A DNA stretch of 64,000 nt, taken from contig JAVRCU010000042.1 in the NCBI GenBank assembly GCA_034530575.1, forward strand, positions 6,648 through 70,647. The letters run 5' to 3'. The notes beneath the pieces are model-generated. The model saw nothing but the letters and a program-made list of their open reading frames with translations. It ran no database searches and was not told the DNA's origin. Within the stretch, counting starts at the first letter, position 1; every line of letters starts with the position of its first letter. Positions 693 to 63,437 of this stretch are shown piece after piece. The stretch is from Aulosira sp. ZfuCHP01 (lineage in GTDB: Bacteria; Cyanobacteriota; Cyanobacteriia; Cyanobacteriales; Nostocaceae). The translations under genes and the position numbers were made by a program.

Positions 693-1649
693 GTGGAGGA
701 CAGAACAATGAAATTTGGCGTTGATATTGGGCATAATTGCCCCCCAGACACCGGAGCTAGAGGTCTCAAATTTGAGGATAATTTAACCTTAGATGTAGGC
801 AATAGAGTGATATCTAAGCTACAAGCTTTAGGACATCAAGTCATACCATGTAAACCAAATAGTGCTAGCACAGTAACTCAATCGCTTGCTCAAAGATGTG
901 ACAAAGCAAATGCTAACAGAGTTGATGTGTATGTATCTATTCACTTTAATTCTTTTAACGGGCAAGCAAACGGCACAGAAGTATTTGCTGGTAGCGAAAC
1001 TAGTACAAAGATCGCTAAACCAGTATTAGATGAAATTGTCAAATTAGGATTTTTTAATCGTGGTGTTAAAAGTGGTTCTCATTTATATGTTCTGAGAAAC
1101 ACAAATATGCCTGCGATTCTTGTAGAAGGTTGCTTCCTCGATTCCCAAAAAGATATGAATCTTTTTAATCCAGAAGCACTGGCAAATGCAATTGTCAAAG
1201 GCTTAACAGGTAAATTACCAACCACTCCTGTCAACCCAGTACCAGATGAGGAACAGAATGTAGATACTACAGTTCAAAGGTTACAAAAAACTTTGAATCA
1301 ACTAAAGATAACCGATAAAAATGGTAAACCTTTGGTAGAAGATGGCATAGCAGGTAGTGCTACAAGTTCTGCAGTAGCCAAATTTCAAAAAATTGCTGGA
1401 ATTGCGGAAAGTGGAAATGCTGACAAAGCTACATGGGATGCAATTAATTTGATTTTAGCAAAAAGAATCATTCGTCTAAATCATGCTGGTGGCCCAGTTA
1501 TTCGCTACTTGCAATATCGTTTAGGCGTTGAAGTTGATGGTGTTTATGGCCCACAAACAGAGGCAAGTATGAAAAACTTTCAAAGGCAAAATGGATTACT
1601 CGCTGATGGAATTGTCGGACCTACTACTTGGCAGAAGTTAATTGGTTAG
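693..1649 (+). CDS. N-acetylmuramoyl-L-alanine amidase (Amidase_3 family) with two C-terminal PG_binding_1 repeats
   Basis: The N-terminal MKFGVDIGHNCPPDTGARG...VYVSIHFNSF...ILVEGCFLD region matches the Amidase_3 (CwlD/AmiC-type) catalytic domain. The C-terminus has two DGxxGxxTxxAxxxFQ peptidoglycan-binding repeats. A GGAGG ribosome-binding site lies 8 nt upstream of the ATG. Confidence 0.8.
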   Translation: MEDRTMKFGVDIGHNCPPDTGARGLKFEDNLTLDVGNRVISKLQALGHQVIPCKPNSASTVTQSLAQRCDKANANRVDVYVSIHFNSFNGQANGTEVFAGSETSTKIAKPVLDEIVKLGFFNRGVKSGSHLYVLRNTNMPAILVEGCFLDSQKDMNLFNPEALANAIVKGLTGKLPTTPVNPVPDEEQNVDTTVQRLQKTLNQLKITDKNGKPLVEDGIAGSATSSAVAKFQKIAGIAESGNADKATWDAINLILAKRIIRLNHAGGPVIRYLQYRLGVEVDGVYGPQTEASMKNFQRQNGLLADGIVGPTTWQKLIG

Positions 1650-3872: not shown

Positions 3873-4544
3873 TTGAGGAGAATGACCATGAAATTCCGTC
3901 ACTTAACTGGCTCTTTGCTAACAGCTACTGCGCTTTTGACCTCTACACTACCAGCATTTGCTGGGCCTTTTGATGTACAGCCTGCTGGTATTTTCAAACC
4001 AGGTATTCTCACCCCTGGTGCAGCTGTAGGTAATGGTACTCCTAAAACTCCTACACCTGGCGCACCTAGCAATCCAGTTGGGAATACTGAAGTTCAAGGA
4101 TTGGGAGACCATCAATCTTGGGTTGACCCGAAAACTTTAGCAAATGACCCCCGTGCTTTGTGTAGTGATGTTGGCTTGGGTAGTAACACCCGCAACAGTT
4201 CTAGCAAATTAGCCTTAGCAACCTCCACTAGCACTCGTTCCAGTTCTTCTCAAAGCCACAATGACGGCGGTGGCGGTGGGGTTAGCTTCTTAGGTATTGG
4301 CGTGAGTGGTAGCGGTGCTAGCCAAGGTAGTCAAAATAACAGCGACTCCAAAGATACCCGCAATAACCGCAATGAGGAAAATAGCAGCAGTTCCTCCACA
4401 GTGGTTCAAGGTAAAAATTGCGATGCTTTCGTTAACTCGGCTGCTGCTAGAGATATGAACTACGAAGACAACCTGACTCGTCGCTATGAAATAAAAACTG
4501 GTCGTCGGGGACAGCAGGTAAATCAACTACTAGACAACAAATAA
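3873..4544 (+). CDS. Secreted hypothetical protein, Gly/Ser/Asn-rich and low complexity
   Basis: It has an N-terminal signal peptide (MKFRHLTGSLLTATALLTSTLPAFAGP), a Pro/Thr-rich linker, a GGGGG block and an S/N-rich tail. A GAGGAG ribosome-binding site is present. Confidence 0.5.
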   Translation: MRRMTMKFRHLTGSLLTATALLTSTLPAFAGPFDVQPAGIFKPGILTPGAAVGNGTPKTPTPGAPSNPVGNTEVQGLGDHQSWVDPKTLANDPRALCSDVGLGSNTRNSSSKLALATSTSTRSSSSQSHNDGGGGGVSFLGIGVSGSGASQGSQNNSDSKDTRNNRNEENSSSSSTVVQGKNCDAFVNSAAARDMNYEDNLTRRYEIKTGRRGQQVNQLLDNK

Positions 4545-4628
4545 GTTATACCAATTCGTAATTTTAAATTAATTCCACGCCGGGGTTAGCACCCTGGCAA
4601 TTACTTTCTTTACTTCTGGGGAGATATC

Positions 4629-26753: not shown

Positions 26754-29700
26754 ATGATAAAAATTGGTTCGTTGGTACGTTCCCGAAATAACAGCTTGGG
26801 CGTAGGGAAGGTAATTAAGATATCTGATACTCAGGCAATAGTTGAGTATTTTTGCTCAGTTGGAAAACGTATAGAAAAAAGTTTACCTTTAAGTTCGCTA
26901 TATCGCTTCAAACTGGATTGTCAAACTCGATGCTATATTTGCCTGGAAAGTCAAGAAGCATGGCTGATTGGCAGAATTTACGAGTGGGATGAGGAACTTT
27001 ATCAGTATCTCGTTGATTTACCTGATAAAAAGACGATCGCAGTCAGCGAACAACAAATATACGTGCGTTGTAGTTTACCTCAACCAGACCCCATTGAGAC
27101 GCTGGCAATGAAGGGGCAAGAAACCCCCTACTTCCACGATAGGCGCTTTGCTTTTGTTAAATGCTTAATTGAACAACGGGCTGTCAGTCGGGGAATGACG
27201 GGATTAATTTCCGCTAATATTAAGCTTTATCCACATCAAGTTGAAGTTGTCCGTCGTGTACTCGAAGACCCGATTCAACGCTATCTACTGGCGGATGAAG
27301 TTGGACTAGGAAAAACCATCGAAGCTGGTACGATTGTTCGTCAATATTTATTGGATGAACCTTCTGGATATGTGGTAGTGCTAGTTCCGCAATATTTACT
27401 TCAACAATGGCAGCAGGAATTAGAAAATAAGTTTTACATCTCCCACTTTCCCAAACGGCTAGCAGTGCTTGCGGTTGAGAATCTTCATAAAATCAACCCA
27501 AAAGCGAAGATTGGCTTGCTAATTTTAGATGAAGCACACCACATTGCAGCAATGGCGACCTCTAGCGATGCAGCAATGCGCCAGCGTTTTGAGAGTTGCA
27601 AACATCTTGCCCATAAAAGCGATCGCCTGCTTCTACTTTCGGCTACCCCGGTTCTCAACCACGAGCAAGATTTTCTCGCAATGCTGCATCTGCTTGACCC
27701 AAAAACTTATCAACTTGATGACTTAGCAGGTTTTCGCGATCGGGTAGTCAAACGCCAAGATATTGGTCGAATTCTGCTGTCATTTCAAGAAGGCGCAAAC
27801 CTCTCCGTCCTGAAAACTAATCTCCAGCATCTCCGTAATCTGTTTGCTGAAGATGAGTATTTACTGAAATTGGCAGACAATCTAGAAAACAGTTTACAAG
27901 CAAAGGCTGACGATACCGTTGAAATTGTCAGGGCAATTCGTACCCATATTAGCGATACCTACAGACTTCACAGAAGGATGCTTCGCAATCGTCGTGCTTC
28001 TGTAGAAGATGTAATTTTTGACCGGAATATTACACCTAGAGCCGAGTACGATTTAGACGAGCGATCGCCTGACATTCACGAATTAATTGAGGCGTGGCGT
28101 AATGCGGCTCCTGATGAGAAACAATATCACCACATTTTTCTCTTGTTCTTCCGTGCTTCTGGTACTTGGTTGGGTATTTTTACACAAGTAATTCAAGCAC
28201 GTTTAAAGAGTGTCTCGCCTGCGGAATTAATTCGGGAATTTGGCGCTGATAGCCTTCGCATCCTCACTGAAACTCCTAAATTTGCTGGAGAAGCAGAGAT
28301 TTTGCAAAGCTTGCTGCGAATTATCGAACAGCCTTCAGAGGATGGCGATCGCCTGGAATTACTCAAGACAGTCATACTTTACCAACTCTGCGAACCTTTA
28401 AAATTACAATCCTTGAAATTCAACCTCCCGAAATTGCTTGCAGAGGTTCAACAACGGATTAAAAGACCGATCCCGGGAGACAGTTGGCCAAAAATTGTTG
28501 TATTTACCAGCTTTGTGCAAACTTGCGCCGAAATTGTCCGCTACTTGAGCGATCGTTTTGGTGAAGGGACTGTTGTCAGCCATCAAGTTGGACAAACTCC
28601 CTCTCAAGTAGAGAAGAACTTAAATCAATTTAAACAAGACCCCAAATGCTTTATTTTAGTTTGCGATTCTTCCGGCGAAGAAGGACGTAACTTACAATTT
28701 ATCAACAACATGATCTATTTTGACCTGCCTTGGTCGCCAAATCGTATAGAACACAGAATTGGTAGAATAGACCGGATTGGTCGTTCATTGAACGTTGAGT
28801 TAACAGTATTTGCTGGCGTAGACTTACCGGATAGTCTCCATGATGCCTGGTATCGCTTATTAAAAGAAGGGTTTAATATCTTTAAGCAATCCATTGCTAG
28901 TCTCCAGTTTTATGTTGAGGAAAAATTACCAGTATTAGCAGAAATCCTGTTTAAATCTGGTGCAAAGGGAATTTTGGAAAGTATCGAAATAATTCCCCAA
29001 GAAATTGAACAGGAACAAGTAAAAATTAGCGAACAAAACGCCTTAGATGAAATAGATGCCTTGGATGAAAGTGCTACCCAATATTTTCAAGTTTTAGATG
29101 ATTATGATGCCCGTCATCAAGAAATTCAAAAAATAACTGAAAATTGGATTTGTCAGGCATTGAACTTTAAAACCATCACTAATCCTAATTTCTCGACACT
29201 TAAGCGTTATAAACCTACCGAAAATACATTAATTCCAGCAGATGATTTGAGTAGTTATTTTGCAGATGTTTTAGAAGAATTTGGGACTTTTAACCGTGAG
29301 GTAGCCAATCAACAACCTGATGCAAAACTCTACCGTATTGGTGAAAAATTTGTAGAAGCATTATCATCTTATATCCATTGGGATGACCGGGGTAAAGCTT
29401 TTGCGATGTGGCGAGTTGAAGAAACTTGGAACGCAGGAGAAGGTGAAGAATGGTATGGTTTCCGATTTAATTACATTATTGAAACCAATTTAACAAATTA
29501 CCAAGGAAACAATCCCAAATCTAAAATTTTGCAAAGACTGGTCGATGGTTTATTCCCGCCAATTGTAGAAAGTGTATTTATTGATGCACGAAATGAACCA
29601 ATGTGTGCTGTTGAAGATGAAACACTTTTAAACATTCTGCACCGTCCTTATAAAGGCAAAGGGGGTAAATTCCGAGATTACAACTTAGCCAAAAGTCGTT

Positions 29701-30059
29701 TATCTATTCTTGATAACTTTATTGAGTCTAGCAATTGGTCAGAATTTTGCTATCAGGCGCATCGCACATCTTTGGAATTACTCAGTCAGCGTCCCGAATT
29801 TATTGGATTATGTGAAAACAGCGCCACCCGTGCTGAACAAAAATTAGGTAAGAGACTAGACCAATTACGCCTGCGTTTCAACCGACTTACTAACCAAGAG
29901 CGATTTTCCGCTCCGGTACTGGAGCAAGAACTTAATAACGAAACGGCATTAAATCAGGTAATTATTGATGGGATTCGTAATCCTACTATTCGCCTAGATT
30001 CTGTTGGTTTTATTATCGTTTCTGGGCAACATCCAGCTAAGTCTGAGGAGGATGATTGA
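26754..30059 (+). CDS. SNF2-family ATPase/helicase, RapA/HepA-like (N-terminal Tudor-like barrel, SNF2_N, Helicase_C), with a roughly 400-aa C-terminal extension
   Basis: Motif I is LLADEVGLGKTIEAG, motif II (DEAH) is LILDEAHH, and motif VI is HRIGRIDRIGR. The N-terminal SLGVGKV... barrel resembles the RapA N-terminal domain. Confidence 0.8.
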   Translation: MIKIGSLVRSRNNSLGVGKVIKISDTQAIVEYFCSVGKRIEKSLPLSSLYRFKLDCQTRCYICLESQEAWLIGRIYEWDEELYQYLVDLPDKKTIAVSEQQIYVRCSLPQPDPIETLAMKGQETPYFHDRRFAFVKCLIEQRAVSRGMTGLISANIKLYPHQVEVVRRVLEDPIQRYLLADEVGLGKTIEAGTIVRQYLLDEPSGYVVVLVPQYLLQQWQQELENKFYISHFPKRLAVLAVENLHKINPKAKIGLLILDEAHHIAAMATSSDAAMRQRFESCKHLAHKSDRLLLLSATPVLNHEQDFLAMLHLLDPKTYQLDDLAGFRDRVVKRQDIGRILLSFQEGANLSVLKTNLQHLRNLFAEDEYLLKLADNLENSLQAKADDTVEIVRAIRTHISDTYRLHRRMLRNRRASVEDVIFDRNITPRAEYDLDERSPDIHELIEAWRNAAPDEKQYHHIFLLFFRASGTWLGIFTQVIQARLKSVSPAELIREFGADSLRILTETPKFAGEAEILQSLLRIIEQPSEDGDRLELLKTVILYQLCEPLKLQSLKFNLPKLLAEVQQRIKRPIPGDSWPKIVVFTSFVQTCAEIVRYLSDRFGEGTVVSHQVGQTPSQVEKNLNQFKQDPKCFILVCDSSGEEGRNLQFINNMIYFDLPWSPNRIEHRIGRIDRIGRSLNVELTVFAGVDLPDSLHDAWYRLLKEGFNIFKQSIASLQFYVEEKLPVLAEILFKSGAKGILESIEIIPQEIEQEQVKISEQNALDEIDALDESATQYFQVLDDYDARHQEIQKITENWICQALNFKTITNPNFSTLKRYKPTENTLIPADDLSSYFADVLEEFGTFNREVANQQPDAKLYRIGEKFVEALSSYIHWDDRGKAFAMWRVEETWNAGEGEEWYGFRFNYIIETNLTNYQGNNPKSKILQRLVDGLFPPIVESVFIDARNEPMCAVEDETLLNILHRPYKGKGGKFRDYNLAKSRLSILDNFIESSNWSEFCYQAHRTSLELLSQRPEFIGLCENSATRAEQKLGKRLDQLRLRFNRLTNQERFSAPVLEQELNNETALNQVIIDGIRNPTIRLDSVGFIIVSGQHPAKSEEDD

Positions 30060-30163
30060 TGAATATCCCATTCTCATAACTGCGGAAAATTCTCAAAACG
30101 CTGAGGATATTTAGCCATGTTTTAAACGCTTGTCATCAACACTTATTAGTGGCACAGGTATGG

Positions 30164-30362
30164 CCATTGGTGTCAACTTAAGCCTAGATGTATACAGCGT
30201 AAGTCTTTGAGGTTATCTCTCTTAGCACCATAAACTTTCTATCCCCCCTAACCCCCCCTTAAAAAAGGGGGGAAAAGAATCAAAGTCCCCCTTTTTAAGG
30301 GGGATTTAGGGGGATCAAATATCTTTAGTAACAAAGCCTTTCACGTTAAGTTGACACCAATT
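30164..30362. mobile_element. MITE-like non-autonomous element (199 bp) with terminal inverted repeats and an 8-bp target-site duplication
   Basis: The TIRs are CCATTGGTGTCAACTTAAGC and GCTTAAGTTGACACCAATT. Direct repeats AGGTATGG flank the element at 30156-30163 and 30363-30370. Internally there are two CCCCCTTAAAAAAGGGGG palindromes. A second copy at 53221-53408 is about 85% identical. Confidence 0.6.
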
Positions 30363-30691
30363 AGGTATGGCAGGCTATCAAACAATTTACTTACGGATAA
30401 AAACCGATAATTTTGCGTTACTCTGTAGCACAATCATCTACTAGATTGATGCAGGGATTGTTATGCTGTTTCTTCCTCGATCTTCCCCGATTGCGCGATC
30501 GCAATCACAAATATTTACATAAATCTACTTTAATTAAATTCAAAATATCGAGACATTATTATACAAATAAGTTAGGATTGAGCAAAAATTTCCCATTAGA
30601 GTAAGGTTGCAGGAGCGCAGAGTCAAAATAATTATTTGAAGTTATATTTCTATATACAAAAATTTTAACCTTTAAAAACATTAATTAATTT

Positions 30692-44810: not shown

Positions 44811-45003
44811 TTTTCTCATACATAATAAATAAATCCTCTTAGGGGTTGTTTTAAAAGTGGTTAGCTGTGATTTTAGATACTAATTTATCCCCCCTACCCC
44901 CCTTAAAAAGGGGGAAAACTGAATCAAAATCCCCCTTAAAAAGGGGGATTTAGGGGGATCTAAAAGTATTTGATACATCATTAGGGACTTTTCAAACATC
45001 CTC

Positions 45004-46275
45004 TTAGATATCTTTCAACCTGGCATTCTTATCAAAATGCAAGTAATGTTTAATAATATGCTCTACGCTATTACCACAGCTATTAGCAAGTAGTTTTAAG
45101 TCAACTCCATGATTAGCTTGAATGCTGATAAAAGTGTGACGTGTAGAATAGGGTTTTAAATATTCTAGTTTTCTCTCTTGGGCTAATTTCTTTACTACCC
45201 CAGGATAGTGGTAGACTTTACCTCTGACCTCAACAGTATTGCCAGTCCAGATATCTGTAAGGGTATTACTTGAATATTGCTTGCCAGCGATAGTTCTAAA
45301 AACTAATTCATTTTCCTTTTTGCCGTTTGCATATAATCTTGTTAATAAATTAACTAACCTATTCATCCCTTGAATTTTAAATAGTCTTTCAGTATTATTA
45401 TTTGATTTTTTAGTAATACCAGCACTACTATCAAATGATTCTTTAAAAAATATCCAACCCTCCTCTAGTTGGATATTTTTCCACTTCAAAGCGAATACTT
45501 CACCATGTCTGCAACCAGTGAGAAACAGAAACTCAATTAAATCAGCACCATGTCTGATAGAGGCTTGCTCAGAATTACGGAATGATTCAACGATCAAATC
45601 TCTTTCTTGGATGTTATAAGCTCTATAATCTTCTAATTCTGAGATTTTTTGCGACTTTTTGGGTATATTGTAAGTTTTTTTGATTTCTATAAAATAATCT
45701 GCCGTTAATTGCTGATTACTAATAGCCCGTTGACACATATTACTCAGCAAACAAAATAGCTTTTTTATTTGTTGTAAGTTACTTTGCTTTAGTAATAAGT
45801 GCTGAATTAAGCTATTGGCAGTATCAAGATTTAATTCTAAGTCTAAAAATTCTTTAATTAGATTGTGGTAAACAATAAAATTTTTTTTATAGGTACTTTT
45901 TTGGATCTGCTTTGTTTGCAATTTCCAATCAACAAACTCATGCCATAATTGTCCTAATTTAGGTGGTTGTGGAGGATTGCTGAACTGGTTAATTGTTGTG
46001 AGTTGCTTAATTTCTAGATATTTAGCGAGTGTTGGATCGAATGAGCTACCATCTGTGCGATCGATATCAGCTTGTATCTGTGCTGCGATTTGATTTGCCC
46101 ATTGCAGATTTTCTGGGGTGTCTCTCCTCCCCAGTCCTTTATAAGCTTGTCGCTTGCTGTAGAACTTCTGGCTAATGCGAGTGCTGAACTGTAGCCTTAA
46201 ACTACCTTTATCTGAACCGACACGTATATCTGCTAATTTGATAGAATCCTTGCTACTCTTATGTTTTGAGTGCAT
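45004..46275 (-). CDS. Tyrosine-type site-specific recombinase / phage-type integrase
   Basis: The C-terminal catalytic region carries conserved Arg, His-x-x-Arg and Tyr residues (LTGCRHGEVFAL...HTFISIQANHGVDLKLLANSCGNSVEHIIKHYLHF). GC is low, in the low 30s percent. The gene is flanked by a palindrome-rich repeat (44880-44960). Confidence 0.8.
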   Translation of the reverse strand: MHSKHKSSKDSIKLADIRVGSDKGSLRLQFSTRISQKFYSKRQAYKGLGRRDTPENLQWANQIAAQIQADIDRTDGSSFDPTLAKYLEIKQLTTINQFSNPPQPPKLGQLWHEFVDWKLQTKQIQKSTYKKNFIVYHNLIKEFLDLELNLDTANSLIQHLLLKQSNLQQIKKLFCLLSNMCQRAISNQQLTADYFIEIKKTYNIPKKSQKISELEDYRAYNIQERDLIVESFRNSEQASIRHGADLIEFLFLTGCRHGEVFALKWKNIQLEEGWIFFKESFDSSAGITKKSNNNTERLFKIQGMNRLVNLLTRLYANGKKENELVFRTIAGKQYSSNTLTDIWTGNTVEVRGKVYHYPGVVKKLAQERKLEYLKPYSTRHTFISIQANHGVDLKLLANSCGNSVEHIIKHYLHFDKNARLKDI

Positions 46276-49067: not shown

Positions 49068-50376
49068 AATTAAGTTTTCTAACTATATTGCTAATAATTT
49101 TTAAGTTTTCATACTCTCAACTAAGACGAAGAAATTAGCACTAATTTACTGCTGTCCTTGTGCTGTAATTTTGGTGAATTCAGAATTTTCTCAAGACAAC
49201 TCGAGAGGGAACTAAAGGACACAACAGGATGCGTGATTTATTAACGCCAGTCACATCTTACTCTCCTGAATTCTACGAGAGCAAGTAAGTAATTTAGCTA
49301 GTCAGGGAAATCGCTGACACGGTGACTCCCCTGAGTGGTAACACGTAGCGTGAGTAGCTTGCCGCCTAAGCCACATACACTAGATTTTGCGCAAACATCC
49401 TTTTCTATAATTACCATAAGGAATTTGCTATATCTGTATCTAATTTTCTACTGTTTTATCATCTTCGCCAATTGCTAGCCTGTAAAAACGCGGAATCTAC
49501 ATTATTGTTTACTATCAGTACTTACTTCAAGCATAGCAAGCAGATTTGTAAAAATAGTTATCACTTGATAATACATAGGCTGTAGAAACATCATTCTAAA
49601 TCCTTGTTTAAGCGATAGGAGTATACAAATTTCAGCAGTATTTGAGAACAGTAGTTGGGAAGATTTTATTTTTAATGTTGCTGTTGTTATTTTTTGATTT
49701 TAATTCCTCACCACATAAAATTCGTCTACCTGATTAACAAGCATTAAAGTTTGGTACTGCCAGCTAAATCAATTGCTCATAGACTATTGTGGTAATTGCT
49801 AAATTTAGTTTCTAGCAATAGGCTATCCTGAAAATCACTCACAATTATGCCAAAATGCCAAAAAGTCTCTGGTTGTCAGTCTCAGACAAGTTTGTGGGTA
49901 TGAAGCCTGTAGTACCTCCCGTTAGTTAACTAGATAAGTTGTGCTTGCTGTATCTGTGCAAAAACAATCAAACCTTGTTCTGACTATAGTTTGAATGATA
50001 AGTCTCTCTTTAGGTAGATTTCAGGATAACTGAGTGCTGAGTGCTGAGTCATAAGTGAGGATCTCACTCGTTACTCAGCACTGTTTCGGTGAGCCGCGAT
50101 CGCTAGGGTAATGATTAATTGATCCCAAAATTCCTACATTAGAGAAAAGATTTAAGGTACGGTTATCTACTCAAGAAATCCCCCCTAAGCTTGCTGCCTA
50201 GGCAAGATAAGACACGGTACATTGAATATGTAGCCGAAAAAGCAGAATGTTACAGAGAGCTACTGCCAATCAAAAACTCGCTTGCTTGCTACGGGCTGGC
50301 GTTACTGACCAAGCACAACTCTCCTACGAGCATTGGGAGAAATCATCACCAATACCGTTTTTCAAGCGACTGTATT

Positions 50377-51357
50377 ATGCGTAAAAAACTACAACAAGCG
50401 ATCAAACCGCTGTTAAAAACTTTCTTTGTCCTGAGCCTGGTGTTAGCTTTGGCACTTGGTCACGCCGATGGAGCATTAGCCGCCCGTAGTGGTGGTAGAA
50501 TCGGCGGTGGTTCTTTTAGAGTGCCTTCTAGCCGCACTTACACACCTCGCACCTACGCACCTCCTGGTGGGGGAGGATACTATGCTCCTTACCCTGGTGG
50601 TGGTTTTGGATTTCCTTTCCTGATTCCTTTCTGGGGTATCGGTGGAGGATTTGGCGGGTTGTTTACCATCTTAATTTTTATTGCGATCGCTAATTTCTTA
50701 GTTCAATCTTTCCGCCGCGCTAGCAGTGGCGATACAACAAACGAAGTAGGCTACAGCAGCAATCCTCCTGTATCTGTAACTCGTTTGCAAGTGGGTTTAT
50801 TAGCTCAGGCGCGTGGTTTACAAACTGAACTCGATCGCATTGCCGAAACTGCTGATACCAATTCCCCACAGGGAAGAGCAGAAATTCTCCAAGAAACTAG
50901 CCTGGCATTGCTCCGCCATCCAGAGTACTGGGTATATGTTGGTGGCGGTACACAGCAAGCTAAGTTGAATTCTGCTGAGGCTCAATTCAATCGTCTCTCC
51001 CTAGCAGAACGCAGCAAATTTAGCGAAGAAACCCTATCTAATGTCAACAACCAACTCAGAGCAGCACTGGCTAAAGAAGCTCTACCTGGTGGTGTAAATC
51101 CAGAAAATCCCACCGATCTCATTACTTCTGGTCCTGGAGAATATATTATCGTTACCTTGTTGGTAGCGACTCTAGGCAAGTATGCAATTCCCGCAATTAA
51201 CAGTGCTGATGATTTGCGTCAAGCTTTGCGTCAAATTGGTGGTATTCCTAGCGAGCAAACTTTGGCGATAGAGGTGCTTTGGACTCCTCAAGCTGAAGGT
51301 GATACTCTCACTTCTGATGATTTGTTAGCTGAGTATCCTGATTTGAAGCTTGTTTAA
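50377..51357 (+). CDS. DUF1517-family membrane protein (cyanobacteria/plastid lineage)
   Basis: The start is placed at the internal MRKKLQQ (ATG at 50377). It has a signal peptide or transmembrane segment, a Gly-rich segment (GGGSFRVP...PPGGGGYYAPYPGGGFGFPFLIPFWGIGGGFGG) and a transmembrane helix. The 62-aa upstream extension in the tracked ORF is unlikely to be real. Confidence 0.55.
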   Translation: MRKKLQQAIKPLLKTFFVLSLVLALALGHADGALAARSGGRIGGGSFRVPSSRTYTPRTYAPPGGGGYYAPYPGGGFGFPFLIPFWGIGGGFGGLFTILIFIAIANFLVQSFRRASSGDTTNEVGYSSNPPVSVTRLQVGLLAQARGLQTELDRIAETADTNSPQGRAEILQETSLALLRHPEYWVYVGGGTQQAKLNSAEAQFNRLSLAERSKFSEETLSNVNNQLRAALAKEALPGGVNPENPTDLITSGPGEYIIVTLLVATLGKYAIPAINSADDLRQALRQIGGIPSEQTLAIEVLWTPQAEGDTLTSDDLLAEYPDLKLV

Positions 51358-51636
51358 TTAAATCAAGCTGCGATAACAGCATAAAAACCGCTTGCCATTC
51401 AGCAAGCGGTTTTTTGTTTCGCTATAAACATATTTAGTATAGTTCTTCCTTATCGATTTTATCTTAGCAGATTTAGAATTAAGCGTCAATCCCAATAAAG
51501 GCAGTGAGTCTGGTAAGCGGGGACAATGCCCAATTACTATTGCCTTTGCAATCGTTTTTCATCTGCTGTGCGATCGCATTTACGCAAAAAATATTTTGCA
51601 AATAAGCAAGTGATAGCAACTTCAAGGAAGCCTGAA

Positions 51637-51765
51637 GCAACATCAGGGTTCCTTGAATTAATTTCAGGGTTCCCGTTTCCGTGTTTCGCGTACCCGGAAT
51701 TAACATCAGGGTTCCTTGAATTAGCATCAGGGTTCCTGTTTCCGTATTTTGCGCAGATTGAAATA
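51637..51765. repeat. Tandem duplication of a roughly 62-bp unit, about 250 bp upstream of the CRISPR array
   Basis: Unit 1 is AACATCAGGGTTCCTTGAATTAATTTCAGGGTTCCCGTTTCCGTGTTTCGCGTACCCGGAATTA. Unit 2 is ACATCAGGGTTCCTTGAATTAGCATCAGGGTTCCTGTTTCCGTATTTTGCGCAG. Each unit contains the sub-repeat TCAGGGTTCC twice. The three short ORFs called on both strands here are artefacts of the repeat. Confidence 0.6.
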
Positions 51766-52017
51766 CATCTCGACAATAATTGATGAAGATCTTATGATTA
51801 GTTATTAGCTTGATGTTTGGCAAATCAAAGCGGGGGCAAAAACCCTAGGGGATCTGCCAAAATCGCCAGAACCTTGACAAAGCAATAATTATAGCGTTTA
51901 AGAGATTTGGGAAGATGCAAAATAATTGCAATAAGGTCGGCTAAAAATGACCATAATTTTCGACCCGTCAAAACTCTTCCCAGGAAGCTTGCTATTGTTA
52001 AGTTTCAGAACCCAGCT

Positions 52018-53162
52018 GTTTCAAACAACAATTACCCCGCAAGGGGATTGAAACTTTGAGATCCTTGATGGGATAACACAAGCTGTAGAGTTTCAAACAA
52101 CAATTACCCCGCAAGGGGATTGAAACATGCGATTATTACTGGAGTTTGTGAAACCGATTATTCAGGTTTCAAACAACAATTACCCCGCAAGGGGATTGAA
52201 ACAACCAATTATGACATTTAGCGAATTCACAGAAAAATGGTTTCAAACAACAATTACCCCGCAAGGGGATTGAAACATCAATATCTCATCCAAAAAATAG
52301 CGATCGCTGCCCAAAGTTTCAAACAACAATTACCCCGCAAGGGGATTGAAACATCGCTTTAAATCTTTAGATGCGCATATTCATCATGTGTTTCAAACAA
52401 CAATTACCCCGCAAGGGGATTGAAACATGCCGAAAAACAAAGAGCTTACAGGCAAAGAATAAGTTTCAAACAACAATTACCCCGCAAGGGGATTGAAACA
52501 AGAATAGTAATGCTTTGCTCCTTGATTCCAATCAATTAAGTTTCAAACAACAATTACCCCGCAAGGGGATTGAAACTCGCCAATAATGCGCTTTAATTCT
52601 ACTTCCACCGGTTTCAAACAACAATTACCCCGCAAGGGGATTGAAACTAGCAATTATAGCAACTAGTTTAGCTGGCGCAATCAAGTTTCAAACAACAATT
52701 ACCCCGCAAGGGGATTGAAACCTAAACCGCTACTAAAACCCTACTAAAAATCGACCCAAAGTTTCAAACAACAATTACCCCGCAAGGGGATTGAAACTGC
52801 TATATAATACTCTCGACGTAGCATTTACTGGAGTTTCAAACAACAATTACCCCGCAAGGGGATTGAAACGCGGCTAATACGTTTTTAGCTAGTAATGGCG
52901 TCACGTTTCAAACAACAATTACCCCGCAAGGGGATTGAAACTCTGGTGATGCTTGATTTCGCAGGTCAGCAGCGTTAATGTTTCAAACAACAACTACCCC
53001 GCAAGGGGATTGAAACCAGCTGATGTTAATGGAACCGCAGGGAGCGATTCGGTTTCAAACAAAAATTACCCCGCAAGGGGATTGAAACTTAGCAGGCGAT
53101 GAGGAGCTATTGAAACCAGTGATCAGTTTCAAACAACAATTACCCCGCAAGGGGATTGAAAC
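52018..53162 (+). CRISPR. CRISPR array of 16 direct repeats (37 bp) and 15 spacers (34-40 bp), with no cas genes in the window
   Basis: The repeat GTTTCAAACAACAATTACCCCGCAAGGGGATTGAAAC starts at 52018, 52090, 52166, 52240, 52316, 52390, 52463, 52540, 52611, 52685, 52761, 52833, 52905, 52980, 53052 and 53126. The repeat at 52980 carries CAACTACC and the one at 53052 carries CAAAAATT, so the variant repeats are at the 53-kb end (trailer). An AT-rich putative leader spans 51840-52017. The repeat has a CCCC-GCAA-GGGG hairpin followed by an ATTGAAAC 3' handle, typical of Cas6-processed class 1 (type I/III) repeats. Orientation is inferred from the leader and degenerate-end positions. Confidence 0.95.
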
Positions 53163-53220
53163 ATCAATATCCGTAACTTTAAATAGGAACAGTGGAAGTA
53201 ATAGAGGGTTTAGCAATGCT

Positions 53221-53408
53221 CACCTGTGTCAATTTAAGCGTAGATGCATACAGCGTAAGTCTTTGAGGTTCTGTCTCTTAGCACCATAAACTTTTGATCC
53301 CCCTTAAAAAAGGGGGAATTATATTAGAATCTTAGCCCCCTTTTTAAGGGGGTTGGGGGATCAAATATCCTGATTGACAAAGCCTTTCACGTTAATTTGA
53401 CACGTATG
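53221..53408. mobile_element. MITE-like element, second copy, flanked by a 9-bp target-site duplication
   Basis: The TIRs are CACCTGTGTCAATTTAAGC and GTTAATTTGACACGTATG. Direct repeats AGCAATGCT sit at 53212-53220 and 53409-53417. Internally it is about 85% identical to the copy at 30164-30362. It lies between CRISPR repeat 16 and the degenerate repeat remnants. Confidence 0.6.
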
Positions 53409-53450
53409 AGCAATGCTAAACCCCTACAAAAAATCTATCTCTATCATGAT

Positions 53451-53557
53451 TTTCGTGAATTGGTATTACCCCGCAAGGAGACTGAAACAACTCAGCGAAT
53501 GTTTTCTCGAATCCAGCAGCAAAACTTATCCCGCAAGGGGACAAATATATCAATCGC
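53451..53557 (+). repeat. Two degenerate CRISPR repeat remnants (decayed trailer end of the array)
   Basis: The first is TTTCGTGAATTGGTATTACCCCGCAAGGAGACTGAAAC (53451-53488), which keeps ATTACCCCGCAAGG-GA-TGAAAC. After a 36-nt spacer-length gap comes CTTATCCCGCAAGGGGAC (around 53525), which keeps the hairpin core. Confidence 0.5.
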
Positions 53558-53617: not shown

Positions 53618-54448
53618 TTAATGCGCGGTTGAATTATGCAGCCAAACTTGAAACAGAGATTCTAAAATATTTTCCCTGGCTGAATTACTCAATTCAGGAT
53701 GTAACCACTTTTCAACTCTGAGAATGTGATGACCAAGTTTGGTGGGAATTGGCCCTATGACTTGTCCTGCTACAGCATCGGTAATAGCTTGGACAATTTC
53801 TGGTATCAATTCTACTAGCAAACACAAGCCAACAAAACCGCCATTTTCTAGAGAGAGTTGATCTTGAGAATACTCTACGGCTAGGGCAGCAAAAGAAGCA
53901 TTTTCTTTTTGAATTAAGTGGACAATTTTTAAGGCATCAGATAAGTCAGGTACTAAAATCTGAGATAGTATCACTTGTCGATAGCGATCGCGGTTTTTCA
54001 TATAATCAGCATCGACTTCCATGCCAAACAGATATTCTTTCAGCTTTTTGGTGAGCAGTTCAATTTTGATTCCCAAAGACCAATCTTCTACAGAGATGCG
54101 CTGCTGAGATAGCCAGTTGAGGGTTTCTGATGCTCCCAACAGCTTGTGTTCTAGACGAAATGCATCTCCGGCTGCTTGTAATTCTTCATTGGTAACTTTA
54201 ATCTTAAACTCCTCGCAAGCCCTTAAAACTAGAGTATCTCGTTCTGCTAAAGCAGCAATGTCAGCTATTTTGTGAACGCGACGCAGGTAAGCCAAAATTT
54301 CTGTATCTGTTGCTGGGGAAATTGATGAAGGTTTTGTCAGGCTTTCTAGCATTACTTTGTCCTGTGTAATTAATAGCAATTTGTATAAGGTAAAGGGCGG
54401 GGAAACTCCGCCCATAAAGCACATTCTTTTATTTGAAAAATTACTCAA
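53618..54448 (-). CDS. PpiC-type (parvulin) peptidyl-prolyl cis-trans isomerase
   Basis: The C-terminal GGFVGLCLL...AVAGQVIGPIPTKLGHHILRVEK matches the rotamase (PpiC) domain. The true start is probably an internal Met (MLESLTK), since the tracked start overlaps the upstream MFS gene by 8 nt. Confidence 0.7.
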   Translation of the reverse strand: MSNFSNKRMCFMGGVSPPFTLYKLLLITQDKVMLESLTKPSSISPATDTEILAYLRRVHKIADIAALAERDTLVLRACEEFKIKVTNEELQAAGDAFRLEHKLLGASETLNWLSQQRISVEDWSLGIKIELLTKKLKEYLFGMEVDADYMKNRDRYRQVILSQILVPDLSDALKIVHLIQKENASFAALAVEYSQDQLSLENGGFVGLCLLVELIPEIVQAITDAVAGQVIGPIPTKLGHHILRVEKWLHPELSNSARENILESLFQVWLHNSTAH

Positions 54449-62995: not shown

Positions 62996-63437
62996 AAGGA
63001 ACCATAGATGAACACAGATAAACACCGATATTTATCTGTGGTTTGATATCAAAAACATCCACTGATATAATCCCTCTTTTGTTACTTTCAGCAGAGAATA
63101 ATCCCTAAGTCTTATTATTGGGTTATTTATCAACAAGCTAAGTTAAATGAGAAAATGATCATGCGATCGCTCAATTGATGATTTTGTCTAAGGTTCAGAT
63201 TGGGTAGAGTATTATTCTCTCCCCGTAGTGATAAAAGAGGGATAATACCAATTCATGAAAATCCTGATACAGATAGATTTTTCGTAGAGGTTTAGCAATG
63301 CTAAACCCTCTACCCACGTATTTGTATCATTATTAAACTGAAATGGTATAAGAGGATGTTTTAAAAGTCTTTTAAAAAGAGTAAGGGCACAACAATGTTG
63401 CACCCCCACCATGTTCTGTATTCAAAAAAAACCGCTA

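Follow-up and report, generated by a model that had tools for sequence, protein, structure and literature searches.

A CRISPR array without neighbouring cas genes in Aulosira sp. ZfuCHP01: comparative evidence for a probable stand-alone cassette of a type I-D/III-D-associated family

Background

What becomes of a CRISPR array that has no cas gene beside it: is it kept in use by proteins encoded elsewhere, or is it a remnant? This question is raised by a stretch of 64,000 nucleotides from the cyanobacterium Aulosira sp. ZfuCHP01 (assembly GCA_034530575.1, contig JAVRCU010000042.1, positions 6,648 to 70,647 of the forward strand), referred to below in its whole length as the window, in which an array of 16 repeats lies between a DUF1517 gene and the gene of a peptidyl-prolyl isomerase (PPIase). 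An initial annotation, made from the sequence alone, had described it as an orphan array of class 1 type whose trailer end was split by a transposable element of the miniature inverted-repeat kind (MITE). We conclude that this is a genuine CRISPR array, that it probably belongs to a repeat and leader family which, in heterocystous cyanobacteria, accompanies type I-D and type III-D systems, and that it forms a stand-alone cassette between the two genes.

Orphan arrays are typical of multicellular cyanobacteria, as illustrated by the 44 arrays and 5 cas1 genes of Tolypothrix bouteillei, and in Anabaena 7120 all the orphan arrays are transcribed and processed in trans (bioRxiv 10.1101/2020.04.14.041012). 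In this strain two Cas6 proteins are distinguished, Alr1566 (type I-D) for the group 2 repeats and Alr1482 (type III-D) for the group 1 repeats, the latter having a C:A mismatch in their stem; mature CRISPR RNAs (crRNAs) begin with an 8-nt tag, and a 134-nt MITE separates CR_6 from CR_7, the two together making up a single array (bioRxiv 10.1101/2020.04.14.041012). Orphan arrays working in trans and arrays interrupted by MITEs are already established in heterocystous cyanobacteria, and the locus presented here is an ordinary example of an orphan array and of such an insertion.

Results and discussion

Anatomy and orientation of the array

The array and the region that precedes it are located as follows.

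51768..52017, + strand: CRISPR leader of about 250 bp, homologous to 14 other Nostocales leaders
52018..53162, + strand: CRISPR array, 16 repeats of 37 bp and 15 spacers; Rfam CRISPR-DR10 at 32-35 bits; hairpin followed by AUUGAAAC

The count of 16 conserved 37-bp repeats and 15 unique spacers given by the initial annotation was borne out. The repeat (GTTTCAAACAACAATTACCCCGCAAGGGGATTGAAAC) recurs with a start-to-start period of 71-77 bp and 14 of the 16 copies are identical to the consensus. The two variants are repeat 14 (52980, T>C at position 15) and repeat 15 (53052, C>A at position 12), not the last two repeats as had been annotated, repeat 16 being again of the consensus sequence. The spacers measure 34-40 nt (mean 36.9) and, when all 15 were compared with each other, the closest pair shared 18 identical positions without gaps. 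The locus combines the features generally expected from a CRISPR array, namely three or more regularly spaced direct repeats that are nearly identical and 23-55 bp long, spacers of similar length none of which is repeated, and a leader that is conserved at one end while the opposite, trailer end decays. At a relaxed threshold, every repeat matches the Rfam family CRISPR-DR10 on the + strand with 32-35 bits (35.1 bits and E=1e-5 for the 14 consensus copies, for a gathering score of 39), and no Rfam family was reached for the array at the gathering threshold.

The computed fold of the repeat RNA consists of a 4-bp stem (CCCC/GGGG) closed by a GCAA loop and followed directly by AUUGAAAC. This layout is the arrangement expected for a Cas6 cleavage that leaves an 8-nt 5' tag, such cleavage being here a prediction from the fold, and the initial assignment to the Cas6-processed repeats of class 1 systems stands. 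The array reads from left to right, because the leader, the Rfam matches on the + strand, the position of the tag at the 3' end of the repeat and the decay of the far end all agree.

The leader was aligned with the DNA upstream of 14 other Nostocales arrays, from Nostoc, Calothrix, Tolypothrix, Aulosira, Amazonocrinis and Dendronalium, with a mean column identity of 84%. The conserved block opens with a promoter-like TCGACA-17-TATGAT at 51770-51798 (10/12 in a promoter scan). RNAalifold gave -11.8 kcal/mol for the leader with no covariation, hence no support for a conserved RNA structure; the conservation is therefore at the level of the DNA sequence, and looks like that of a DNA-level function such as promoter or integration signals. 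At least at eight other loci, the ten genes found directly upstream of the same leader type are housekeeping genes (including those of an aldehyde dehydrogenase, an MscS channel, a phytochrome kinase, NDH-2, MarC and a resolvase). This leader and repeat family thus usually takes the form of leader-plus-array cassettes that have no cas genes.

Upstream of the leader promoter, at 51615-51753, two tandem units of 63 nt contain three copies of a 15-nt motif (TCAGGGTTCCTTGAA), one of them inverted. This tandem region is kept at the orthologous locus of Calothrix sp. NIES-2098 described below and is absent from the flanks of the other arrays; it could be a locus-specific regulatory site. A small open reading frame (ORF) overlapping it (51479-51823) was rejected as a gene, as it has no Pfam match and the ends of the frame differ in NIES-2098.

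Surroundings of the array

The array stands downstream of the DUF1517 gene (50191-51357, + strand) and is followed by the gene of the PPIC-type PPIase (53618-54352, - strand), both flanks having been named by the initial annotation and both confirmed by Pfam. The other neighbours recognised by Pfam include transporters, a glycosyltransferase, thiamine genes and a transporter of the major facilitator superfamily (MFS). A PADLOC scan of the non-nested ORFs of the window that reach 75 aa, 60 in number, detected no Cas family; the sole Cas-related matches were weak and were not traced to an ORF (Cas3g, E=0.0077; CARF3--CARF, E=6.8e-5). No cas gene was present either among the genes situated about 1.9 kb past one end of the window and about 1.5 kb past the other. 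The cas-free span around the array thereby extends over about 53 kb upstream and about 12 kb downstream (about 67 kb in total), in line with the orphan status that had been annotated. The cas12k, tnsB, tnsC and tniQ genes that would adjoin the array of a type V-K transposon were absent from the PADLOC and Pfam scans of the window, and the synteny of the array site with NIES-2098 also counts against this identity.

About 6 kb upstream of the array, beside the thiamine genes, we observed a tyrosine recombinase (Pfam Phage_integrase, 45004-46275, - strand). A gene of unconfirmed identity occupies the equivalent position at the edge of the NIES-2098 locus, and the recombinase site may be conserved between the two.

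Relatives linked to type I-D and type III-D genes

To which type of system does such an array belong? A cas-linked relative is carried by the plasmid pNsp_a of Nostoc sp. ATCC 53789 (NZ_CP046704.1), in which a complete type I-D operon (cas3', a cas10d-sized gene, csc2/DevR, csc1, cas6, cas4, cas1d and cas2) is directly followed by the same leader, starting at the cas2 stop codon, and by an array. The repeat of this type I-D-linked array is identical to that of the window at 32/37 positions and at 23/24 of the last 24 nt, homology between the leaders extends for about 225-250 bp and the repeats share the hairpin. The two loci differ in that the window has no cas gene and in their tags, ACTGAAAC on pNsp_a and ATTGAAAC in the window. 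A second array of pNsp_a, located after a long cas6 (383 aa), has the leader type in common, and its repeat matches at 28/37 positions and 18/24 of the last 24 nt. Finally, at a locus from a Nostoc metagenome-assembled genome (MAG), designated L008, remnants of cas4 and cas2 lie right against the leader of an array, and the repeat of this array is identical to that of the window in its last 24 nucleotides. These homologies, of the leader and repeat on pNsp_a and of the 24-nt core in L008, support the link to a type I-D or type III system that had been suggested from the repeat, and type I-D is the best-supported origin of the array on sequence grounds.

At L008 (3307-3723, - strand), the cas4 gene is truncated (81 aa aligned) and cas1 is missing between it and cas2. 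This locus resembles a halfway state in the loss of a type I-D adaptation module situated beside an array.

The repeat can also be placed with respect to the two groups of Anabaena 7120. As in group 2, repeat and leader are homologous to those of an array physically linked to a type I-D operon, and a hairpin without internal mismatch is followed by an 8-nt tag, the agreement being approximate as the published stems have 6-8 pairs and the present one 4 bp. The mid-stem C:A mismatch of group 1 (type III-D) is absent from the predicted fold. The array resembles the group 2 arrays (CR_6/7, CR_8 and CR_11) in being cas-free, in its heterocystous host, in its short G/C hairpin and in its 8-nt 5' tag, a likeness drawn from the features described in the text of that study and not from repeat sequences. 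Anabaena 7120 contains several dispersed arrays per genome, and the MITE insertion that splits CR_6/CR_7 also has a counterpart at the window array.

An alternative that we hold to be possible, though clearly less probable, is that the array serves a type III-D system through a Cas6 resembling Alr1482, either instead of a type I-D system or besides it. Indeed, the leader family also precedes the second pNsp_a array, behind the 383-aa cas6; single copies of the 24-nt core adjoin a type III RAMP gene (TIGR03986) in Anabaena catenula; the Csm3, Cas7_IIId and Csx21 families are represented at loci having this core; and Alr1482 of Anabaena 7120 also cuts group 2 repeats in vitro (bioRxiv 10.1101/2020.04.14.041012). 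However, the window repeat is nearer to the repeat of the type I-D-linked array than to that of the array behind the long cas6, it lacks the longer stem with a C:A mismatch reported as the mark of the type III-D repeat group, and L008 ties the exact core to cas4 and cas2, which are adaptation genes of type I-D. We therefore retain type I-D as the first candidate, the two types being not exclusive of each other.

Solitary copies of the last 24 nt of the repeat were noted at 4510-4546 (- strand) of locus L018 and at 1321-1357 (+ strand) of locus L020, where they are joined to an unrelated 5' half (AAAC/AATC-AARCTTTAA). The solitary core copies are found in Anabaena catenula, just downstream of a cluster of type III RAMP genes, and in Nostoc sp. 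ChiSLP01, with neighbours devoid of annotation.

An orthologous array in Calothrix sp. NIES-2098

The comparison with Calothrix sp. NIES-2098 (AP018172.1) bears on whether the array is still in use. The two species share the gene order VanY, permease, phosphoribosyltransferase (PRTase), MFS transporter, PPIase, DUF1517, glycosyltransferase and ThiS/ThiD2, and in NIES-2098 the same leader with a mini-array of 3 repeats and 2 spacers is found between the PPIase and DUF1517 genes. Its repeat differs from that of the window by one base, and the last copy ends in GAGAG. The two arrays thus have in common their chromosomal site, the upstream tandem motif region and a leader that is 95% identical, and they differ by the absence from NIES-2098 of the MITE and of the 74-nt element described below and by its shorter trailer. 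Since an array occupies the same site in both species, it was present before they split. Three close PPIase homologues (P0004-P0006) were also considered as a source of synteny, and were uninformative owing to their different gene context.

Between the window and NIES-2098, the leader is 95.4% identical over 263 nt with zero gaps. By comparison, six flanking genes have 80-87% identity at their third codon positions, and the alignment of the intergenic DNA that immediately precedes the leader shows 83.7% identity and 67 gap columns. None of the 2 spacers of NIES-2098 is shared with the 15 of the window. This pattern suggests that the leader has been under purifying selection in both species and that the spacer content has turned over at a site free of cas genes. 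Leader conservation at an orthologous orphan locus also makes it likely, as far as sequence comparison can suggest it, that the array is maintained and served in trans.

Several results weigh against this interpretation. The spacer difference between the two species could have arisen from loss alone, without new acquisition. The comparison of the spacers with phage and plasmid databases proposed by the initial annotation yielded no protospacer: the 15 spacers gave a single match of chance level (E=0.7) among the INPHARED phages and none among the PLSDB plasmids, and 22-nt seeds of spacers 1-3 gave none in IMG/VR. A search for Cas6 homologues with a type I-D Cas6 as query, completed by two cluster look-ups, returned many Nostocales proteins, none attributable to the source MAG, and by these means no cas6, cas10d, cas10 or cas1 was assigned to the source genome. 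As regards the type I-D origin, the single copies of the 24-nt core that lie beside the TIGR03986 gene of Anabaena catenula, and the type III-D families found somewhere among the 20 loci with this core, point in another direction.

Another reading is that the array is a dead relic, left when neighbouring or genomic cas genes disappeared and neither processed nor extended any longer, a hypothesis to which the 67 kb without cas genes, the lack of a Cas6 attributable to the source MAG, the lack of a known target for any spacer (in INPHARED and PLSDB and, for the seeds of spacers 1-3, in IMG/VR) and a trailer end that is decaying and invaded by mobile elements all lend some weight. We nevertheless judge it distinctly unlikely. 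The leader is more similar between species than the third codon positions of its neighbours; 14 of the 16 repeats have remained identical while the true relics downstream have diverged; the spacer content is wholly different from that of the orthologous array; and orphan arrays of this family have been found experimentally to function in Anabaena 7120 (bioRxiv 10.1101/2020.04.14.041012). That the orphan status would be an artefact of a fragmented MAG, with a cas operon lying just past the contig or the window, is hardly credible: the MAG contig is of 74.5 kb and the inspected DNA stops about 5 kb short of one of its ends and 2 kb short of the other, but the cas operons of this leader and repeat family directly abut the leader, which is preceded here by intergenic DNA and then by the DUF1517, glycosyltransferase and thiamine genes, a gene order that the near-complete chromosome record of NIES-2098 also shows for 8 kb in either direction. 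An array maintained at its site and served in trans is accordingly the reading that we prefer.

Other searches gave no target or further copy. No spacer targets the window itself; a match of spacer 10 to the 74-nt dispersed element described below (18/20) was rejected as being of chance level (E=0.48); the repeat had only chance matches in phages; and neither the repeat core in IMG/VR nor the full repeat in the JGI metagenomes was found.

The trailer end and its mobile elements

Downstream of repeat 16, the array gives way to a composite region, described by the following features together with two related elements located elsewhere in the window.

53163..53201, + strand: unique sequence of 39 nt after repeat 16, with no match in the window or in the fetched loci
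53202..53220, + strand: left part of a 74-nt palindromic element, in which 53212-53220 (AGCAATGCT) is the left copy of the duplication
53221..53408, no strand assigned: MITE of 188 bp, with imperfect terminal inverted repeats CACCTGTGTCAATTTAAGCG / CATACGTGTCAAATTAACG
53409..53472, + strand: right-hand copy of the duplication (53409-53417), then the right-hand part of the 74-nt element, the last bases of which overlap remnant 1
53452..53488, + strand: repeat remnant 1, 25/37 matches, its 3' 24 nt (53465-53488) matching at 22/24
53512..53548, + strand: repeat remnant 2, 22/37 matches, with an exact 12-mer CCCGCAAGGGGA (hairpin core) and the 8-nt tag lost
30165..30362, no strand assigned: second MITE copy of 198 bp, with the duplication AGGTATGGC at 30156-30164 and 30363-30371
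63239..63312, - strand: uninterrupted paralogue of the 74-nt element, downstream of ndhH, an empty-site analogue for the MITE insertion

The 188-bp MITE with a 9-bp duplication that had been annotated was corroborated by both the second copy and the uninterrupted paralogue. The two copies are homologous from end to end, and each of these short non-coding elements with terminal inverted repeats is flanked by its own 9-bp direct duplication, AGCAATGCT (53212-53220 and 53409-53417) for the first and AGGTATGGC for the second. The MITE next to the array sits in the central palindrome (GGGTTTAGCAATGCTAAACCC) of the 74-nt element, which, once the MITE is removed (53202-53220 joined to 53418-53472), is 90.5% identical over 74 nt to 63239-63312 (- strand). 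These are the two copies of the MITE in the 64-kb window, and Tolypothrix tenuis PCC 7101 has a related inverted-repeat end. At 53411 the short-read contigs of two sequencing runs come to a stop, a kind of break that is expected at a multi-copy element. We had also considered whether the 9-mer AGCAATGCT belonged to a terminal inverted repeat of 32 nt, a possibility overturned by the separate duplication of the second MITE copy and by the uninterrupted target paralogue.

The two repeat remnants are of unequal quality. For remnant 1, the 25/37 ungapped matches to the repeat were reached by 0/2000 shuffles; its stem is broken (GGAG for GGGG), no hairpin is predicted, its tag is ACTGAAAC, and its apparent 5' half is supplied by the 3' end of the 74-nt element. 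Together with the downstream DNA, it aligns with the terminal repeat and trailer of NIES-2098, by a weak alignment whose score was reached by 37/1000 shuffles, which hints that remnant 1 may be the ancestral terminal repeat. The 39 nt that follow repeat 16 may be the leftover of a spacer. When the MITE and one copy of the duplication are removed, the gaps measure 92 nt between repeat 16 and remnant 1 and 23 nt between the two remnants. Of the initial description of two degenerate remnants at spacer-like spacing, the remnants are thus retained and the spacing is not. In the same way, the MITE does lie between the intact array and decayed repeats, as had been proposed, its target being however the 74-nt palindromic element and not a spacer.

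The order of events that would account for this arrangement has three steps. The old end of the array would have decayed to two remnants, the 74-nt dispersed palindromic element would then have become fused to the first of them, and the 188-bp MITE would later have entered the palindrome and generated the 9-bp duplication. Compared with the 134-nt MITE of Anabaena 7120, which divides two working parts of an array, the MITE of the window divides the array from decayed remnants, and unlike the insertion between CR_6 and CR_7 it landed in another small dispersed element. The clean 9-bp duplications and the uninterrupted target paralogue define a small family of mobile elements in these genomes.

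Two further observations concern the elements themselves. Within the MITE, a G/C-rich hairpin module (53293-53365) is composed of GATCCCCC...GGGGGATC with CCCCCTTAAAAAAGGGGG sub-hairpins; it has a free-standing relative, 75% identical, at 44881-44952 of the window and another in the fetched locus L015, and seems to represent a small family of repeats in its own right, nested within the MITE. The 74-nt element has the core GGGTTTAGCAWTGCTAAACC and a 3' end, ATTAYCCC, that resembles the first bases of the conserved half in the CRISPR repeat, and its copy downstream of ndhH continues as ...CCC-14 nt-GGGGA, with a loose likeness to the repeat hairpin. A search for the core of this element in metagenomes returned nothing.

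Other genes in the window

Two large genes are found far upstream of the array. The first (26754-30059, + strand) encodes a SNF2-type helicase of 1101 aa that is matched from end to end by the PADLOC DpdE model (E=2.5e-234), and the scanned ORFs of the window contained no further Dpd component. The second (30692-33316, + strand), directly downstream of this DpdE-like helicase and of the second MITE copy, encodes an 874-aa homologue of the eukaryotic major vault protein, with the Pfam domains Vault, Vault_2, Vault_3, Vault_4 and MVP_shoulder (E down to 1e-68). A match to PDC-S44 (E=4e-108) belongs to a separate ORF of the window and not to the DpdE-like helicase.

Conclusions

The mechanism that we propose for the window array is derived from its homology to cas-linked arrays and from the experiments on Anabaena 7120. 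The promoter at the leader edge (about 51770-51798) would drive the synthesis of a + strand pre-crRNA, which a Cas6 encoded elsewhere in the genome would cut at the 3' base of the CCCC-GCAA-GGGG hairpin to give crRNAs with the 8-nt 5' tag AUUGAAAC. These crRNAs would be loaded into type I-D effector complexes, possibly into type III-D complexes too, and a remote Cas1-Cas2(-Cas4) module would add new spacers at the conserved leader.

A broader and more speculative idea, which we consider unlikely as things stand, is that the leader-plus-array cassette is a self-standing selected unit, held at a fixed housekeeping site in different species and renewing its spacers by means of a distant adaptation module, and that complete cassettes of this kind, each having a promoter and a leader of about 250 bp of its own, would spread among Nostocales genomes by active copying or mobilisation and not only by the break-up of cas-linked arrays.

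The most useful result of this analysis is comparative, namely an orphan array at the same housekeeping site in two species, with a conserved leader and wholly different spacers. The conservation of the leader set against the difference in spacers provides support, at the level of sequence, for selection acting on arrays free of cas genes. As NIES-2098 is a cultured strain, its locus lends itself to simple tests of whether spacers are acquired in trans at a leader far from the adaptation genes.

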